IMG/VR virus record: IMGVR_UViG_2695420889_000008 | Direction: 5' to 3' (one strand) | DNA from: a virus | Taxonomy: Duplodnaviria > Heunggongvirae > Uroviricota > Caudoviricetes | DNA length: 10,752 nucleotides | Shown: piece after piece, positions 2,826 through 8,892 of the stretch | How positions within the stretch are numbered: the first letter of the stretch is position 1 | Layout of the letters: each line of letters opens with the position of its first letter | The notes under the pieces: generated by a model | Told to the model about the DNA's origin: nothing | Databases searched by the model: none | What the model saw: the letters and a program-made list of their open reading frames with translations, nothing else | Translations under genes and position numbers: made by a program

Positions 2826-3215
2826 TCAGGCGGCTGCACCCGCCGGTTTCTCATACTTACTGATAGTGATCTCGACCTTCCCTTTCGGGATAACCGGTCC
2901 CCACTCCACCAGCATTCTTTTCACCTGGCTGTCGTCTTCCCACACACCCGCGTGGGTCAGGGCGTCAAACAGCGCCTTGTTATAGTTGTCCAGATCGCGG
3001 ATCCGGTTATCCGGAGGAAACAACACGATCTCCACTGAAGCAGGTGCCGACGTTGGTTTCGGCAGACGACGTAACTGCTCAACTATTGCTGCGCACGCCG
3101 CGCTCTGAAATTTTCGCCCCGCCTCGCTTATCAGGCTCTTACCAGCAAATGCCCCTTTGTTGGGGTGTCGCCAGTACGTGTTCACGCTGGGCGGGAAAGG
3201 CAGGATCAGCTTCAT
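2826..3215 (-). CDS. rusA: Holliday-junction resolvase RusA
   Basis: 129-aa ORF with RusA hallmarks: LPFPPSVNTYWRH and acidic catalytic cluster RIRDLDNYNKALFDALTHAGVWEDDSQV. ATGA overlap with the upstream gene. Confidence 0.85.
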   Translation of the reverse strand: MKLILPFPPSVNTYWRHPNKGAFAGKSLISEAGRKFQSAACAAIVEQLRRLPKPTSAPASVEIVLFPPDNRIRDLDNYNKALFDALTHAGVWEDDSQVKRMLVEWGPVIPKGKVEITISKYEKPAGAAA

Positions 3216-3538
3216 ACTTTCAGGCCTCTCTCATGTAACCAGTGAGTTGCACGCAGCCTTGCGTTTTCCTCACCGGCAAGCAGTGAGCGGATAATCCCGA
3301 CCGCCTCGCTGTCGTCGTCCTTCACCGCGGTATGAAGCGTGATCCCCCGGGCCACACCACGCTTTATCGTGATGACGCCTTTTTTCTCCAGTGCGCGAAG
3401 ATGCTCCACCGCTGCATTCACCGAACGGTATCCCAGCATGGTTGCCACCTCCTGATTGGTTGGCGGGAAGCCACGTTCTTTCTGATAAGAAATCAGCATA
3501 TCCAGCACCTGCTGCTGGCATTGAGTTAACGTCGTCAT
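3212..3538 (-). CDS. Orphan LexA-like N-terminal DNA-binding-domain protein (no S24 peptidase domain)
   Basis: 108-aa ORF. LTQCQQQVLDMLISYQKERGFPPTNQEVATMLGYRSVNAAVEHLRALEKKGVITIKRGVARGITL aligns by eye to the LexA winged-helix domain, including a near-identical recognition helix (SVNAAVEHLRAL vs LexA SPNAAEEHLKAL). No Ser/Lys peptidase domain. ATGA overlap with the Dam gene. Confidence 0.7.
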   Translation of the reverse strand: MTTLTQCQQQVLDMLISYQKERGFPPTNQEVATMLGYRSVNAAVEHLRALEKKGVITIKRGVARGITLHTAVKDDDSEAVGIIRSLLAGEENARLRATHWLHERGLKV

Positions 3539-4188: not shown

Positions 4189-4682
4189 TAAGCCCCCACG
4201 TAATTCCCTGACAGATACCACTCTTCACCCGATGCAGCGCGCTTGCTGCTTTTCCGTAAGCACCGCTCACGACGCGCCAGAAAATTGTTTCGTTCTGGCT
4301 GGGAGTGGCTTTCACGGAATGCCGCCATCCACACCGTTGCAGCACGACGGTATAAGCCCCTGGACTCCAGTTCTTCAGCCTGGCGGGTCAGGCACAAAAT
4401 CACCCGGGGGTCGTTAGTGCCGACATAGAAATTGCGCACAGGTCTGGTTTCACGAACTGGTTGCGGTTCCGATTCCTGCAAAACCTCAGTCTGGCGCGGG
4501 AAATGTCTGCGAGTATCCCCTTCACAACGGTGAGCCACACGCCCACTCTGACGTAACTTGCTTGCTGACTGCAGAACGCGCTGTCGTGAGTAACCTGCAA
4601 AAGCATCCGCAATGTCTCCGGAAGCACACCCCGGATGGGCTTCAATGAATTTCTGAACGTCATTTAACAGACTCATGATCAC
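4188..4682 (-). CDS. Hypothetical early protein with PerC-like C-terminal region
   Basis: 164-aa ORF; ATGA overlap with the O-like gene stop. Segment LESRGLYRRAATVWMAAF resembles the PerC-family core; recollection only. Confidence 0.5.
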   Translation of the reverse strand: MIMSLLNDVQKFIEAHPGCASGDIADAFAGYSRQRVLQSASKLRQSGRVAHRCEGDTRRHFPRQTEVLQESEPQPVRETRPVRNFYVGTNDPRVILCLTRQAEELESRGLYRRAATVWMAAFRESHSQPERNNFLARRERCLRKSSKRAASGEEWYLSGNYVGA

Positions 4683-5497
4683 CCCCTGAATCCTGCCGGG
4701 ATCTGGCTGTAGTCCACGTTGTCGTAACTGGCTTTGAAGTACGGGTCATCGCGTCTGGCTGCAGATACCGCAGGAACTTCCCAGGATTCTTCGAAATGAC
4801 GATCCGGACCAAAGAACGTGACAGCCTGTTTCACAAATTGTGTGCCGCTATTGCCCATCGCAGATACCCAGCCCGCGTAGCGTTTCACACCTTCCAGCAT
4901 GGTTTCGGGGTTTACCCCCTCGTTCAAACGGGCTTTCCAGGCTTTGAAGGCTGCTGATTTTGAATTGCCACCAGCACGTTTGGGGTATGCCAGCCATGCC
5001 TGCTCAAACTCCGGAGAGTATTCCGGTCGGTTTGAACGAACTCGCACAGACTCATCAGCAGATGCACCAACAGCTATTGGTTCATTGACTGGTTCTTTGA
5101 CTGGTTCAAAAGAGTGACTGGTTCTGGGTGAATCTCCTGCACTACCCCCTGGTGCAACTCCTGCACTACCTGGTGAATTTGCTGCACCAGATAGTGAATT
5201 ATTTGCACTACCCCCTAGTGAATCTCCTGCACCATCCAGATGAAGGAGATAGATATTACTTGAGTTACCTTTTTCACCTTTCCGGGTGACTTTTTTTACC
5301 AGCCCGGACTCACAAAGGGCCGCAATATGATTCATCACAGAACGTTTGCTAATCTCGCACTGGTCAGCAATATGCTGGTAGCTGGGCCAGCACTCACCCT
5401 GATCGCTGGCATTATCAGCCAGCTTGATCAGAACCAGTTTTCGCAATGGATTACCCACTCGAATTTTCATCGCTTTAACCATCAGCTCCATACTCAT
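4679..5497 (-). CDS. Replication initiator / replisome organiser (lambda O-like) with internal iterons
   Basis: 272-aa ORF. N-terminus KIRVGNPLRKLVLIKLADNASDQGECWPSYQHIADQCEISKRSVMNHIAALCESGLVKK is a winged-helix replisome-organiser type. Central low-complexity linker (GGSANNSLSGAANSPGSAGVAPGGSAGDSP) is encoded by direct DNA repeats. ATGA overlap with the upstream gene. Confidence 0.7.
   Translation of the reverse strand: MSMELMVKAMKIRVGNPLRKLVLIKLADNASDQGECWPSYQHIADQCEISKRSVMNHIAALCESGLVKKVTRKGEKGNSSNIYLLHLDGAGDSLGGSANNSLSGAANSPGSAGVAPGGSAGDSPRTSHSFEPVKEPVNEPIAVGASADESVRVRSNRPEYSPEFEQAWLAYPKRAGGNSKSAAFKAWKARLNEGVNPETMLEGVKRYAGWVSAMGNSGTQFVKQAVTFFGPDRHFEESWEVPAVSAARRDDPYFKASYDNVDYSQIPAGFRG
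5086..5237. repeat. Direct-repeat (iteron-like) array inside the O-like gene; candidate replication origin
   Basis: Five ~21-24-bp tandem units with core GTGAAT(C/T)T(C/G)CTGCAC at 5128-5237, and three copies of TGACTGGTTC at 5086-5124, all read on the plus strand. Confidence 0.6.
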
Positions 5498-5718
5498 GCT
5501 GCACCTCCGAGATGCTTCATGTTTTTTCCGGAGCGAAAGGCTATGAGCGGCATACTGACGCGGTAATTACGACCCAGCGGTTCACAAATCACCTTCTGAC
5601 ATTCACGGTCAACCAGGCTAACACGTAGAACATGCCCTGCAGGCGTGGTGTACCACTGACCCGGGCGAGGACAACGGAAAGTTTGATTGGTAAACCGTTT
5701 GAAAATATTTCGGATCAT
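5494..5718 (-). CDS. Hypothetical small protein (74 aa)
   Basis: ORF bracketed by ATGA overlaps on both sides (5715-5718 and 5494-5497), which argues for translation; no recognisable motif. Confidence 0.45.
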   Translation of the reverse strand: MIRNIFKRFTNQTFRCPRPGQWYTTPAGHVLRVSLVDRECQKVICEPLGRNYRVSMPLIAFRSGKNMKHLGGAA

Positions 5719-6866
5719 TTGCGCCCCCTTACCTCTGAAGAGTTCAGCGACGAATGAATAAGACGGGCAAGAAATGCCGCATCGTTAATTCGGTCATACA
5801 GACTTACAGCCAGCGGTGATTCAGCTTTTTCCAGCATGGGATAAAGCTGCTGCAACCAGACCTGATGAATTGATGAAATGTAGGAATAGAGAACGCTGGC
5901 GTTATGTGCAACGTCACTCGGTACAGCGAGCTTTGAAAGCTGTTTCTCCATCTGGTTAAAGGCATTGATGTATGCCTCTTTGAACTGGGCAGCACGTTTA
6001 CCCGTGAAACCCATAGCAAGAAACGCAAAGCCGTCGCGGGTTATTTGATAGCAAGGTAGTTTGCGGCCTGTGCAATCGGTGTAATCACTCACCGAAAAAT
6101 TGCGGGCAGTGAATGATGCGGAGCATTCAAGCGTGCGGATCTTTTTCAGAACATCGTCATGACGTTTGGAGAAGAAGTTGGCAACAGCCAGGGATGAAGT
6201 AACAGCCTGACCATCAACGATGGCAATTTCGGGTTGAGTGAGGGTTGGGATCGTAGCCATGATGGCAGCCTCTTTGGTGATTTTTAATAACTCACCACCA
6301 AGGCTTTCCACGACCTTATTGGTGGTGAGACGTACAGGGGTGGAAATACCGGTCACCAAAGAACCCGGCCCAACCGAAGTTGGCCCTGCACGCCCCACCA
6401 TAATTTGGGCGTAATGCTGCTCATGACACAAAAAAACCGCAAGAGCGCGGTTGTGCGCTTTGGTGAATTCCGGGTTTCCACGCCCGGCACCCGCTTTATA
6501 AGGTGCCTGAACAGTGTAACGTCCCGGAATGGCAGAATCAATGTGCTGGTGGTCCTTCACACTCAACAAAATCACGCCTGAATTTCCACAAAGGACTAAA
6601 GCACTCATGCGGGTAGTCTTTGCGAAGATAGATAACGCGCTGTGTTTCTGGCTCCCAACGAATAACATGGACATAAAGCCCTCTTCCGTCACGAAACCAG
6701 CGGTTAAGTTCCTGCACAACTCGCCCCCCACAGTCAGGTAAAGTTCTCTGTGGTTACTTACAGCCAGGTGATTTGGTAATCTGCATTCATGCCGTAACAA
6801 CAGGTGTTCAGCGACACTGACCACCAGCTGTTGCGACAAACGGTTATTTGCCGTTAAACTGTTCAT
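5715..6866 (-). CDS. Rha-family phage regulatory protein, C-terminal 181 aa, with ~200-aa in-frame N-terminal extension of unknown function
   Basis: Rha signature VTSSLAVANFFSKRHDDVLKKIRTL...ITRDGFAFLAMGFTGKRAAQFKEAYINAFNQME lies in the C-terminal half. The open frame runs 383 codons from an ATG (6864-6866) that overlaps the CII-like stop (ATGA). A second start at 6258-6260 has an AGAGG Shine-Dalgarno and would give a stand-alone Rha protein (5715-6260). Which start is used is unresolved. Confidence 0.55.
   Translation of the reverse strand: MNSLTANNRLSQQLVVSVAEHLLLRHECRLPNHLAVSNHRELYLTVGGELCRNLTAGFVTEEGFMSMLFVGSQKHSALSIFAKTTRMSALVLCGNSGVILLSVKDHQHIDSAIPGRYTVQAPYKAGAGRGNPEFTKAHNRALAVFLCHEQHYAQIMVGRAGPTSVGPGSLVTGISTPVRLTTNKVVESLGGELLKITKEAAIMATIPTLTQPEIAIVDGQAVTSSLAVANFFSKRHDDVLKKIRTLECSASFTARNFSVSDYTDCTGRKLPCYQITRDGFAFLAMGFTGKRAAQFKEAYINAFNQMEKQLSKLAVPSDVAHNASVLYSYISSIHQVWLQQLYPMLEKAESPLAVSLYDRINDAAFLARLIHSSLNSSEVRGRK
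6430..6452 (-). terminator. Intragenic terminator-like hairpin inside the N-terminal extension of the Rha ORF
   Basis: Minus strand: ACCGC-gctctt-GCGGT followed by T6-7. Short stem, so weak. Confidence 0.3.
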
Positions 6867-7426
6867 GCGTTAGTTTCTCCACAGACACAAAACGCCACGA
6901 CGCCCGGAGCTGCACACTCGCGGGCGTCACTCTTTTCTGGAGCGCAAAAGATTTTGTAGACCAGTGCTGCATGCTCCTGGAGCTTCGAAATTGACAGATA
7001 CAACTCATCATTAATTGCTGTCTGCTCGTGTGGCTCCACGACCCCATCTTCGATTGCCGAACGAATCTGCTTTGAGTAATTCCCGATCTGTTCGATGACT
7101 TCCAGCAGGCGCTGGTTTATATCGGCGTTCTCTACTTCCTCAATTTCAGGAAGCGATACGAACACCCCACCAGCAGACTGTGCGACAGCATCCGCAATGT
7201 AGTGAGTGCCAGCCGCGCGCTGTAAAACCATTGCCCATCCCAGCGGGAAAATCTGATCGCCATCGGCACGAAGGCGGTTAAATAATGCGTTCTCTGTTAC
7301 ATCCAGCCAGTCAGCTGCTTCAGCGTAACCACCCGGCAACGCTGCGATAGTTTTTCTGACAGCTTTCACGTACCACTCAGGCTGTTTTTCTACTTTCCAG
7401 TGATACTTACCCACGGTTAGCCTCAT
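6863..7426 (-). CDS. CII-like early regulatory protein (tentative)
   Basis: 187-aa ORF immediately downstream of the Cro-like gene, stop overlapping the next start. Family guess is from position and recollection only; weak Shine-Dalgarno. Confidence 0.4.
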   Translation of the reverse strand: MRLTVGKYHWKVEKQPEWYVKAVRKTIAALPGGYAEAADWLDVTENALFNRLRADGDQIFPLGWAMVLQRAAGTHYIADAVAQSAGGVFVSLPEIEEVENADINQRLLEVIEQIGNYSKQIRSAIEDGVVEPHEQTAINDELYLSISKLQEHAALVYKIFCAPEKSDARECAAPGVVAFCVCGETNA

Positions 7427-7457: not shown

Positions 7458-7658
7458 TTAATCTTTCGGATAGATATCCGGTCTTAAGTCAGATTTCGTA
7501 ATTGCACCTGACGTGCATTGCTCAAGTTTTTTAGCCAGCACAAAACTGGCTTTTTTATAACCATTGAAAACCAGCCGTAAGTAGCCTGGTGTTGAGCCAA
7601 CTTTTCCGGCCAACTCGCCCTGCTGTTCTTTGGTTAAAGAGTCCCAATACGCTTTCAT
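7458..7658 (-). CDS. Cro-like HTH repressor
   Basis: 66-aa ORF starting MKAYWDSLTKEQQGELAGKVG, with GGAGG Shine-Dalgarno 10 nt upstream. Divergent from the CI-like gene across an operator-rich spacer. The ORF-track start at 7682 has no Shine-Dalgarno and was rejected. Confidence 0.6.
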   Translation of the reverse strand: MKAYWDSLTKEQQGELAGKVGSTPGYLRLVFNGYKKASFVLAKKLEQCTSGAITKSDLRPDIYPKD

Positions 7659-7664
7659 ACAATA

Positions 7665-7731
7665 TGTACCTCCAATATACATATTACATGATTAATATGA
7701 ACCTTCAAGATACTTGTACCTTATCGGTACA
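7665..7731. promoter_or_regulatory. OR-like operator region between the divergent Cro-like and CI-like genes
   Basis: Two 17-bp sites: TGTACC-tccaa-TATACA (7665-7681) and TGTACC-ttatc-GGTACA (7715-7731). Candidate leaderless PRM: TTGTAC (7714-7719), 17-bp spacer, TTTAAT (7737-7742), start near the cI ATG at 7749. Candidate PR on the minus strand: TTGAAG (7703-7708) and TAATAT (7681-7686). Confidence 0.5.
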
Positions 7732-7748: not shown

Positions 7749-8423
7749 ATGAAAACAGTCCATGACATCCGGCGGTCTAACGCCAGAAAACTGAGAGATG
7801 GTGTTGGCGGGAATTCTTCCTTTGCCACCATGATTGATCGCGAGCCAACCCAGACCAGCAGGTTTATGGGAGATGGTGCTACTAAAAATATCGGTGACAG
7901 CATGGCACGGCACATCGAAAAATGTTTCGACCTGCCTGTCGGATGGCTTGATCAAGAACACCAGACCACGAACATCACAAAAAAACCTGATGTTTCAATC
8001 ACTAACAAACAAATAACGTTAGTCCCTGTCATATCATGGGTACAGGCCGGAGCATGGAAAGAAGTTGGCTATTCTGAGGTTGATTTGAGCACAGCAGAAA
8101 CTTATCCCTGCCCTGTACCCTGTGGCGAAATGACTTATATCTTGCGGGTGATTGGTGATTCAATGATTGATGAGTACCGCCCGGGAGACATGATTTTTGT
8201 TGATCCCGAAGTCCCTGCCTGCCACGGTGACGACGTTATTGCATTGATGCACGATACAGGCGAAACCACCTTCAAGCGATTGATAGAAGATGGAACACAG
8301 CGTTATCTCAAAGCATTAAACCCAAACTGGCCTGAGCCTTACATTAAGATTAACGGTAATTGCTCTATAATTGGTACAGTAATTTTCTCAGGAAAACCAA
8401 GAAGATACAAAATAAAGGCCTAA
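7749..8423 (+). CDS. CI/DicA-type prophage repressor with LexA-like S24 autopeptidase domain
   Basis: 224-aa ORF. C-terminal domain has the S24 motifs GDSM (catalytic Ser), GDMIFVD and TFKRL (catalytic Lys). N-terminal domain ends in the VGWLD motif typical of C2/CI-type DNA-binding domains. Confidence 0.85.
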   Translation: MKTVHDIRRSNARKLRDGVGGNSSFATMIDREPTQTSRFMGDGATKNIGDSMARHIEKCFDLPVGWLDQEHQTTNITKKPDVSITNKQITLVPVISWVQAGAWKEVGYSEVDLSTAETYPCPVPCGEMTYILRVIGDSMIDEYRPGDMIFVDPEVPACHGDDVIALMHDTGETTFKRLIEDGTQRYLKALNPNWPEPYIKINGNCSIIGTVIFSGKPRRYKIKA

Positions 8424-8461: not shown

Positions 8462-8494
8462 TTGACAATGTACCCACAAGATACATAATGTATC
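8462..8494 (+). promoter_or_regulatory. PL/PdicB-like repressor-controlled promoter with embedded operator
   Basis: -35 TTGACA (8462-8467), 16-bp spacer, -10 CATAAT (8484-8489). Operator-like TGTACC-cacaa-GATACA (8469-8485) fills the spacer; the 15-bp perfect palindrome GATACATAATGTATC (8480-8494) overlaps the -10. Confidence 0.6.
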
Positions 8495-8892
8495 TAAAAG
8501 AAACATGCCGCAGGCAAGATTAAACAAAATTTGGTTGTAACACGGCGTATGGCACATGCGTCGTTAGCGGTCTGGGGACGTTAAAGGGGACAATCCACTC
8601 CTTGCTCGGGCAAAAAAACCAGGTAGCCGGAATGTGCAAGTCAATGATGATGCTGATAAGACGCCTAACCAGCGCGGCGATCCGGTTTGACGCCTGGGAA
8701 GAGACCAGGGTGCAACGATGAGGGCATTTATGGAACCGCGACAAAGTGTGGTGCCGTAACTGGCTAAGTGCTCTCAGCGTTGTGGTAATCCGCGAAATGG
8801 CGCGGCGGTAAGTATGGCGGGGTTACTCTTTCCCCGTTGAGGACACCGGATTGTCAGGTTGACCATACGCCTGAGTGACAACCCCACCACAA

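Follow-up and report, generated by a model that had tools for sequence, protein, structure and literature searches.

A probable replication origin of iterons and a conserved 12-mer array within the initiator gene of a lambdoid-type Escherichia coli prophage

The stretch of DNA analysed here (10,752 nt; hereafter the window) belongs to IMG/VR virus record IMGVR_UViG_2695420889_000008, a member of the Caudoviricetes. On its minus strand, the list of open reading frames (ORFs) and their translations give a replication-initiator gene at 4679–5497, encoding 272 aa. The segment at about 5074–5233, inside the linker-coding part of this gene, is probably the replication origin of a lambdoid-type E. 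coli prophage, embedded in the gene for its own initiator. A first-pass annotation had suggested an origin from two families of direct repeats found there. Comparative evidence supports this reading of the repeats, from which we infer origin function, and with it that the initiator binds there, that the origin fires, what the 12-mers do and that host DnaB/DnaC is used.

Two repeat families in the linker-coding region

The repeats were checked by direct reading of the sequence, by repeat finding and with Tandem Repeats Finder (TRF). The first family consists of five 15-bp pseudo-palindromes (iterons) that start on the plus strand at 5128, 5152, 5173, 5194 and 5218, span 5128–5232 (gene nt 266–370) and are spaced by 24, 21, 21 and 24 bp. 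From 5128 to 5218, their plus-strand sequences are GTGAATCTCCTGCAC, GTGCAACTCCTGCAC, GTGAATTTGCTGCAC, GTGAATTATTTGCAC and again GTGAATCTCCTGCAC. In gene sense, iteron 1 (5218–5232) reads GTGCAGGAGATTCAC; iteron 2 (5194–5208; GTGCAAATAATTCAC) is the most divergent copy, with four mismatches to the reference; iteron 3 (5173–5187) reads GTGCAGCAAATTCAC; iteron 4 (5152–5166; GTGCAGGAGTTGCAC) has perfect 5-bp inverted arms, GTGCA/TGCAC; and iteron 5 (5128–5142), identical to iteron 1, abuts the second family. A search of the window with the iteron reference, allowing up to three mismatches, returned six matches against 0.32 expected, a number reached by none of 200 shuffles. The family motif GTGMA-N5-TKCAC occurs exactly five times in the 10.7-kb window, always within 5128–5232, and neither TRF nor the motif scan found any other repeat cluster or iteron-like motif there.

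The second family, TGACTGGTTC, has exact copies at 5086, 5098 and 5115 (spacing 12 and 17 bp) and a degenerate fourth at 5074–5083. It makes up a core at 5074–5127, in which GAACCAGTCA units lie at 5115–5124, 5098–5107, 5086–5095 and, in degenerate form, 5074–5083, spaced by 17, 12 and 12 bp. The core reads, in gene sense, CC AGA ACC AGT CAC TCT TTT GAA CCA GTC AAA GAA CCA GTC AAT GAA CCA ATA G; its first GAACCAGTCA is translated as R-T-S-H and the next copies as E-P-V, a different frame. Both families lie where the first-pass annotation had placed them, and its 21–24-bp unit is replaced by a 15-bp dyad that recurs every 21–24 bp. All the repeats fall in codons 89–138, in the region that AlphaFold2 models as disordered (aa 91–157), so they encode the protein linker, as had also been proposed.

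Constraint on the DNA rather than on the protein

Homologues were fetched from a one-genome-per-species collection by alignment of the N-domain only (aa 1–75), which avoids circularity. Of 80 loci, 79 were usable; their hosts include Pseudomonas, Enterobacter, Aeromonas, Shewanella, Xenorhabdus and Marinomonas, and their GC contents range from 0.37 to 0.62. Across 69 homologues, synonymous codons are scrambled over aa 1–87 and essentially fixed over aa 89–135. Where N-domain residues are invariant, the share of the commonest codon averages 0.54, and for both Arg19 and Ser39 all six codons are in use. The corresponding share in the core is 0.94 (R=AGA in 63/63, S=AGT in 65/65, H=CAC in 54/54, S=TCT in 63/63, E=GAA in 65/65 and 60/60, V=GTC in 60/62), and the fixation holds in Pseudomonas of 60% GC. 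Along the alignment, the share of the major codon is 0.2–0.75 over aa 1–87, 0.9–1.0 over aa 89–135 and 0.40 at P136. We take this synonymous-frozen zone (codons 89–135, about 5093–5233) as the comparative footprint of an element that acts as DNA; the interval of the first-pass annotation, 5086–5237, is nearly the same.

Linkers of 69 out of 77 homologues carry three to seven GTG-N9-CAC units (mode 4–5; motif GTG[C/A]A-N5-T[G/T]CAC), with spacings of 21, 22, 23 and 24 bp in 82, 35, 41 and 73 cases. Such units number 310 in the linkers and six in the remaining 48.5 kb of coding sequence of the same genes. Since spacings of 22 and 23 bp shift the unit into another reading frame, the same DNA is translated differently along a linker: iterons are read in two frames in 47 of the 69 genes, and A-GTG-CAG-GAG-ATT-CAC, for example, gives S-A-G-D-S or V-Q-E-I-H (also SAGDS versus VVQEIHQ). 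Both orientations also occur within single genes, for example L137 and L173: GTGCAGGAGATTCAC is translated as AGDS, and GTGAATCTCCTGCAC, its exact reverse complement, as ESPA. Palindromic ends, both orientations and independence of frame are as predicted for a double-stranded site of a dimeric winged-helix protein, and not for a peptide repeat.

On a rival account, the repeats would be no more than a by-product of a low-complexity, slippage-prone protein linker and would have no function as DNA. A disordered linker rich in Gly, Ser, Ala and Pro is indeed encoded there, and copy number changes by whole units, as expected of slippage. However, the codons are frozen while the amino acids vary, and the features just described (identical units in two frames and both orientations, palindromic ends, spacings of 22 and 23 bp that are not multiples of three) make this account very improbable. 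The first-pass annotation would have given up its proposal for homologues that keep the protein linker and lose the DNA repeats; the opposite was found, the DNA being kept even where the peptide changes. At the level of sequence, the comparison shows the repeats to be under nucleic-acid-level rather than protein-level selection.

We give as little credence to a constraint on the mRNA, whether through structure, a translational pause or a programmed frameshift yielding a protein of the N-domain only. In two of the 79 loci (L141 and L180), the reading frame does cross the core in +1 and reaches a stop codon shortly afterwards. Nevertheless, folding detected no significant structure (z = −0.55 for the origin region as DNA; z = +1.74 for the core as RNA, worse than 194 of 200 shuffles), and the RNA-structure reading was therefore dropped. 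No Rfam family overlaps the region (the only ones, C4 and isrK, lie at 6318–6506), reading of the sequence revealed no canonical slippery heptamer, and units in both orientations point to recognition of double-stranded DNA. As a single strand the core has unusually little structure, which we count in favour of an origin.

In L141 (Pseudomonas bharatica) and L180 (Erwinia tracheiphila), the stop codon comes right after the core (...HPEPVTLLNQ*). These loci would give proteins of 118–133 aa with only the N-domain and the iteron-encoded part, perhaps because the prophages are decayed, perhaps as a natural source of an inhibitor that only binds DNA. An overlapping antisense gene was considered as well and rejected: stop codons interrupt the core in two of its three antisense frames, and unit spacing across the family is not a multiple of three.

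A 12-mer core common to the family

The first-pass annotation was right that a TGACTGGTTC repeat family is present, but this is a core invariant across the family rather than a second set of phage-specific iterons. The string CC AGA ACC AGT CAC TCT TT(T/A) GAA CCA GTC AA- GAA CC is shared, nucleotide for nucleotide and synonymous sites included, by Salmonella phage S137 and two Vibrio phages; Aeromonas phage AsXd-1 and Stx2a_F403 deviate from it at only one to three positions. The proteins of all these phages are 48–69% identical to the query over the stretches that align. A 38-nt core was found at gene nt 340–440 in 77 of the 79 usable homologues, with scores mostly of 29–38 out of 38 (shuffled consensus: mean best score 18, maximum 23). 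In a minority the spacer is 2 nt shorter, which changes the translation of the first unit from R-T-S-H to P-E-P-V-T although its DNA is unchanged. The family core comprises a pair of GAACCAGTCA units at a distance of 17 bp in 51 cases and of 15 bp in five, followed by up to two or three more at 12 bp. Genes of the genome set have at most three units, and E. coli allele L007 has four. Altogether, 156 GAACCAGTCA units lie in core zones and 27 in 922 kb of flanking sequence. The core has no inverted symmetry.

Five more distant members keep the same order, with iterons of their own followed by tandem 10–12-mers, and their sequences have drifted. The Pseudomonas aeruginosa member has AGAACCGTAAT AGAACC..., that of Neisseria gonorrhoeae three copies of GAACCGTCAGTy, that of Sulfitobacter three GAACC units 10–11 nt apart, and that of Massilia degenerate 12-mers of the form RAAYCATCARTT with no exact GAACC. 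In the N. gonorrhoeae prophage (L216), gene nt ~330–570 contain about ten units that share a GAACCRTCRGATT core, spaced by 15 or 22 nt and translated as EPSDF, EPSDY and NHQIL, that is, in more than one frame, ahead of its three 12-mers (VEPSVEPSVEPS). The architecture is the same here, with a related core.

Repeats, N-domains and exchangeable C-domains

The association between recognition helices and iterons was examined in 194 genes pooled from the viral and genome sets. GTG..CAC iterons are present in 162 of 163 genes whose recognition helix is of the form x[RK][ST][VA], and in none of the 26 whose helix is of another class (xxSTV, xxSAV). Units with GGGC..GCCC ends occur in about half of the xxSTV genes, and inspection of the other sequences suggests units with TGCC..GCAC ends. 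This association is consistent with binding of the iterons by the N-domain without proving it. The module combinations are more telling: the GTG..CAC class of N-domain and iterons combines with every one of the 11 unrelated C-domain clusters and the remaining helix classes with two to four, and these pairings show the putative binding sites travelling with the N-domain. In two natural chimeras, P0065 and P0072, a C-domain of the phage SfV type follows a foreign N-domain and the iterons that belong to it, joined exactly at the core. The core is therefore also a recombination junction, directly visible in these chimeras.

The GAACCAGTCA core could accordingly have been kept mainly as a patch of homology for recombination between modules, with no role in initiation, leaving the 15-mers as the only origin elements. 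The joint in the chimeras and the attachment of 11 unrelated C-domain clusters at one and the same point are what such a patch would produce. However, 36 nt, rare AGA codons included, are nearly identical in hosts of 37% to 62% GC, next to synonymous sites that have reached saturation. The contrast implies purifying selection that acts continuously, as opposed to exchange from time to time. In addition, two to four copies of the unit follow one another at fixed spacings of 17, 15 and 12 bp, and tandem 10–12-mers persist in the same place in the more distant P. aeruginosa, Neisseria, Massilia and Sulfitobacter members, with GAACC in all but Massilia. We therefore regard a patch without a part in initiation as unlikely.

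Variation in repeat number between relatives, anticipated by the first-pass annotation, is extensive. Near-identical E. coli alleles of 242–302 aa have from one to about nine iterons: one in P0042, two in P0030, five in the common 272-aa form and seven to nine in alleles of 286–302 aa, with eight in phage cdtI (294 aa). Between one and four units make up the 12-mer array (L008, L006, L007). Another E. coli allele (P0040, 247 aa) has a natural in-frame deletion that takes out the whole GAACCAGTCA core together with the last iteron and leaves both protein domains in place.

Helicase recruitment

As the first-pass annotation had noted, the operon has no helicase-loader gene; profile searches of the neighbouring genes uncovered no helicase gene either. 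The genes past the initiator encode, in order, a PerC-like protein (YfdN), Dam methylase, a protein like the LexA DNA-binding domain (DBD), RusA, KilA-N, DUF968/HNH and antiterminator Q, with neither a P-type loader nor a DnaB-type helicase among them. The C-domain had no meaningful match in Pfam (E up to 10), in NCBIfam or among sequences of the Protein Data Bank (PDB). In PHROG it is labelled "DnaD-like helicase loader" (phrog_1701, 1e-32) and "primosomal protein". Relatives with the same type of C-domain differ in what lies downstream. A DnaC-like AAA+ gene (IstB_IS21) follows in Aeromonas phage AsXd-1 and in an Enterobacter prophage; in the latter it precedes a gene for a DnaB-family helicase, which the next ORF of AsXd-1 fits by size alone. 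Prophages of Phytobacter and Kosakonia have a DnaB-family helicase and no detected loader, and one of Leclercia has PerC and Dam instead, like the window. The C-domain would thus recruit a DnaB-type helicase, and since the phage encodes neither helicase nor loader while its relatives carry DnaC-like and DnaB genes, phages of the SfV type would use the host DnaB–DnaC complex.

How the origin might work

In the mechanism that we propose, dimers of the N-terminal winged helix would bind the five pseudo-palindromic iterons GTGMA-N5-TKCAC. Their spacing of 21–24 bp, about two helical turns, would set them on roughly one face of the DNA, giving a complex like the O-some of lambda. The neighbouring array of GAACCAGTCA 12-mers, in the position of the AT-rich tract of lambda, would be the site of strand opening or helicase entry, and the exchangeable C-domain would bring in the DnaB-type helicase, in this case as the host DnaB–DnaC complex. 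With moderate confidence, the core may be regarded as the unwinding or helicase-entry element or as a second binding site that the whole family shares.

A bolder proposal, which we make tentatively and hold to be possible rather than probable, is that a very large proteobacterial family of phage initiators shares the GAACCAGTCA array as an element for sequence-specific unwinding or helicase entry, in the role of DnaA-trios or of the 13-mers of plasmid DNA unwinding elements (DUEs). The array would be read as single-stranded DNA by the invariant face of the HTH_36 winged helix or by a host factor that Gamma-, Beta- and Alphaproteobacteria have in common, independently of iteron specificity and helicase module, and would double as the crossover point. 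If true, this would be an undescribed universal origin core inside a coding sequence, kept more strictly than the protein it encodes.

Several points weigh against an origin at this place or against parts of the mechanism. Origin activity and initiator binding are putative here, and according to the papers on the "Eru" types, to one of which this initiator belongs, nothing is known about their replication proteins (PMC8951638). The DnaA box TTWTNCACA has no match in the whole window. No strongly AT-rich tract of the lambda kind adjoins the iterons: the core is about 60% AT and the segment adjoining the iterons 50–60% (window mean 0.50, standard deviation 0.10), and the local maximum, about 70% AT, falls at 5240–5280, where the coding sequence is unconstrained. 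No homology of the C-domain to a known helicase-binding domain is recognisable, the association of helix and iteron classes is confounded by physical adjacency and joint inheritance, and conservation of the core could be owed in part to its role as a recombination junction.

Alternatively, the repeats could be binding sites of the initiator or of another phage regulator with a regulatory task (autoregulation, handcuffing for copy-number control or a roadblock in the early operon), the true origin lying elsewhere. The comparative tests reveal constraint on the DNA and a link with the N-domain, not what binding achieves; the same sites in iteron plasmids serve both initiation and control; and an evident AT-rich DUE is missing. 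Nevertheless, the window has no second cluster of repeats and no further iteron-like motif, position and architecture match the experimentally defined origins of lambda and P22, and an adjacent, invariant and unstructured array of 12-mers is hard to explain for a pure operator. A purely regulatory function is for these reasons improbable, and we prefer an origin.

Other searches of the region were negative or uninformative. No GATC site is present at 5000–5300, so that an origin controlled by Dam and SeqA is not suggested, despite the Dam gene downstream. A scan of 4600–5800 detected no sigma-70 promoter. Beside the iterons, at 5274–5289 on the plus strand, antisense to the initiator gene, lies a terminator-like hairpin with a T-run (TCACCTTTCCGGGTGA CTTTTTTTAC), at chance level (two found, 1.1 expected). 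In the plasmid collection, the N-domain occurred only in phage-like circles of ~40–50 kb and in mis-filed chromosomes, with no minimal replicon that would prove sufficiency.

The initiator and its genomic context

The initiator matches Pfam HTH_36 (PF13730) with 44.1 bits (cutoff 25; 1.8e-11) and phrog_270, "replication initiation protein", over aa 3–271 (2.3e-88). Its gene is 98.4–99.1% identical in nucleotide sequence to those of mEp460, SfV (orf39) and Stx2a_WGPS2 and 89% identical to that of ST64B (sb42); copies 98–99% identical, labelled "replication protein", are also found in phage cdtI and many Shiga toxin (Stx) phages. Stx2a_WGPS2 is the reference for the "Eru6" replication type, in which the protein is known only by its HTH_36 motif (PMC8951638). 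On sequence grounds, then, the window initiator is a homologue of phage replication initiators, of the "Eru6" type.

An AlphaFold2 model built with an alignment of 22 sequences comprises an N-terminal winged-helix DNA-binding domain (aa 1–88, encoded at 5233–5497 on the minus strand), the disordered linker and a C-terminal helical domain (aa ~158–272, encoded at 4682–5026 on the minus strand). The winged helix is modelled over aa 1–87 with a predicted local distance difference test (pLDDT) score of ~85 and the helix and strand pattern typical of this fold; helices of the C-domain occupy about aa 160–236. The recognition helix is predicted at aa 51–64 (KRSVMNHIAALCES) and the wing at aa 67–85. 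Foldseek searches with the full model returned generic winged-helix matches to the N-domain only (E 0.01–0.07), among them DnaD-N, MarR/PadR and Orc1 (E 0.01–0.05).

E. coli E2865 has a prophage that matches the window with 100% identity. Gene order around the initiator matches that of SfV, ST64B and the Eru6 reference, with Rha/Ash upstream and PerC-like, Dam and RusA genes downstream. The early operon runs leftward from a divergent repressor/cro pair: a LexA/S24-type repressor (7749–8423, plus strand) and a Cro/YdaS-like protein (7458–7682, minus strand). A CII-like protein (6863–7426), the 383-aa Rha/Ash protein (5715–6866) and a 74-aa ORF (5494–5718) precede the initiator, all on the minus strand. 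Just 3′ of the repressor gene, non-coding sequence at 8467–8506 has a tandem direct repeat of 20 bp, AATGTACCCAAAAGAAACAT, in two copies with 80% match.

Rfam places a C4 antisense RNA at 6318–6405 (83.6 bits) and the small RNA isrK at 6430–6506 (67 bits), both on the minus strand and within the 5′ part of the Rha/Ash ORF, a single coding sequence in RefSeq. The locus looks like an antisense-controlled antirepressor module of the P1 immI or Gifsy type directly upstream of the replication gene, and the true start of Rha/Ash may lie further downstream. Between Dam and RusA, at 3212–3538 on the minus strand, a 108-aa protein consists of the LexA DBD alone (PF01726, 2.9e-19) and lacks an S24 peptidase domain; it could mimic LexA without being cleavable. 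Beyond the left end of the window, the E2865 prophage (L212; 3622150–3634968) has the layout of Stx phages downstream of Q, with tRNA-Ile, two tRNA-Arg and then a SASA/NanS-p esterase. No stx genes are annotated between the tRNAs and the esterase, which makes this prophage a stx-negative relative of Stx phages.

Significance

In the accessible literature, neither iterons nor an origin is described for the HTH_36 initiator family, and an earlier mention in the original genome papers of SfV and ST64B is possible; searches with the motif strings returned only unrelated primer matches. What we describe is very probably, from its sequence features, an origin of a known kind, with iterons within the initiator gene, well delimited and set in a widespread but unstudied initiator family; the one feature that may be new is the family-invariant 12-mer core. 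The gene or part of it was detected in 2805 of 5426 complete E. coli genomes, and most of it in 896. The replication module is present in SfV, ST64B, phage cdtI and many Stx1 and Stx2 phages. Replication of Stx phages drives toxin output. That of the "Eru" types has been stated to be uncharacterised (PMC8951638).

Placing the candidate origin within ~160 bp provides a defined fragment and defined motifs. Iteron number (one to about nine) offers a simple polymorphic marker, and the order of winged helix-turn-helix (wHTH), GTG-N9-CAC iterons and GAACCAGTCA core an annotation rule for origins in thousands of prophages. The element would also be a clean case of DNA overriding codon choice within a gene, with a bearing on recoding and on how "low-complexity linkers" are read.

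Comparison with known systems

The first-pass annotation had likened the layout to that of lambda ori inside O, and the annotated origins of lambda and P22 do lie mid-gene. The lambda iterons are at nt 349–433 of O, spaced by 20, 24 and 23 bp, and the P22 rep_origin is annotated at nt 353–497 of gene 18; the window element spans gene nt 266–424. Its description of the initiator as "O-like" holds by analogy of layout but not by family. The protein has no match to Pfam Phage_rep_O (PF04492) at E<0.01, only to HTH_36, whereas lambda O and P22 gp18 match PF04492 at 1e-36 to 1e-38, and BLASTP of the initiator against lambda O and P22 gp18 was non-significant.

Lambda shares with the window an origin in the middle of the initiator gene, between the codons of a DNA-binding N-domain and of a helicase-recruiting C-domain (the latter putative in the window), in an early operon, rightward in lambda, downstream of cro/cII-like genes. 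Lambda, 933W and P27 likewise have four to six dyad-symmetric iterons about two helical turns apart. Iteron number also varies among lambda and Stx phages and lengthens the protein, lambda having four iterons and the Stx phages 933W and P27 six, with 13 extra residues (PMC7466680). However, the iterons of lambda are 18–19 bp long and those of the window 15 bp with GTG..CAC ends; the place of lambda's ~80%-AT tract is taken by the sequence-conserved array of GAACCAGTCA 12-mers; and lambda has a P-type loader gene, for which the window has no counterpart. P22, too, has its origin within the initiator gene, and some relatives of the window protein resemble it in having a DnaB-family helicase of their own directly downstream. 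In contrast, gp18 belongs to Phage_rep_O and is unrelated in sequence, and the window phage has no helicase gene. Gene 18 of phage L has been interpreted in the same way, with different iterons inside homologous genes of different phages (bioRxiv 10.1101/2020.10.05.325894). SfV (orf39), ST64B (sb42), mEp460 and Eru6 have the same gene and neighbours as the window, with no difference at gene level.

In iteron plasmids (F RepE, R6K pi, RK2 TrfA, pPS10 RepA), a winged-helix initiator binds phased repeats beside a repeated unwinding element of 12–13-mers, and host DnaB/DnaC is used with no loader encoded by the element. The window resembles them in its winged-helix initiator, in repeats beside a 12-mer array and in having no loader of its own, its function being the putative part of the likeness. 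It differs from them in that no Rep_3-type domain was detected (Pfam, NCBIfam), in having no DnaA boxes, in iterons that are dyad-symmetric rather than purely direct repeats and in an origin inside coding sequence. The architecture of its own family, in which a wHTH is followed by a linker with three to seven iterons, the GAACCAGTCA core and a variable C-domain, is one that the window fits, with five iterons and three to four core units. By analogy, the window element would work like lambda ori while its initiator stands outside the lambda O family.

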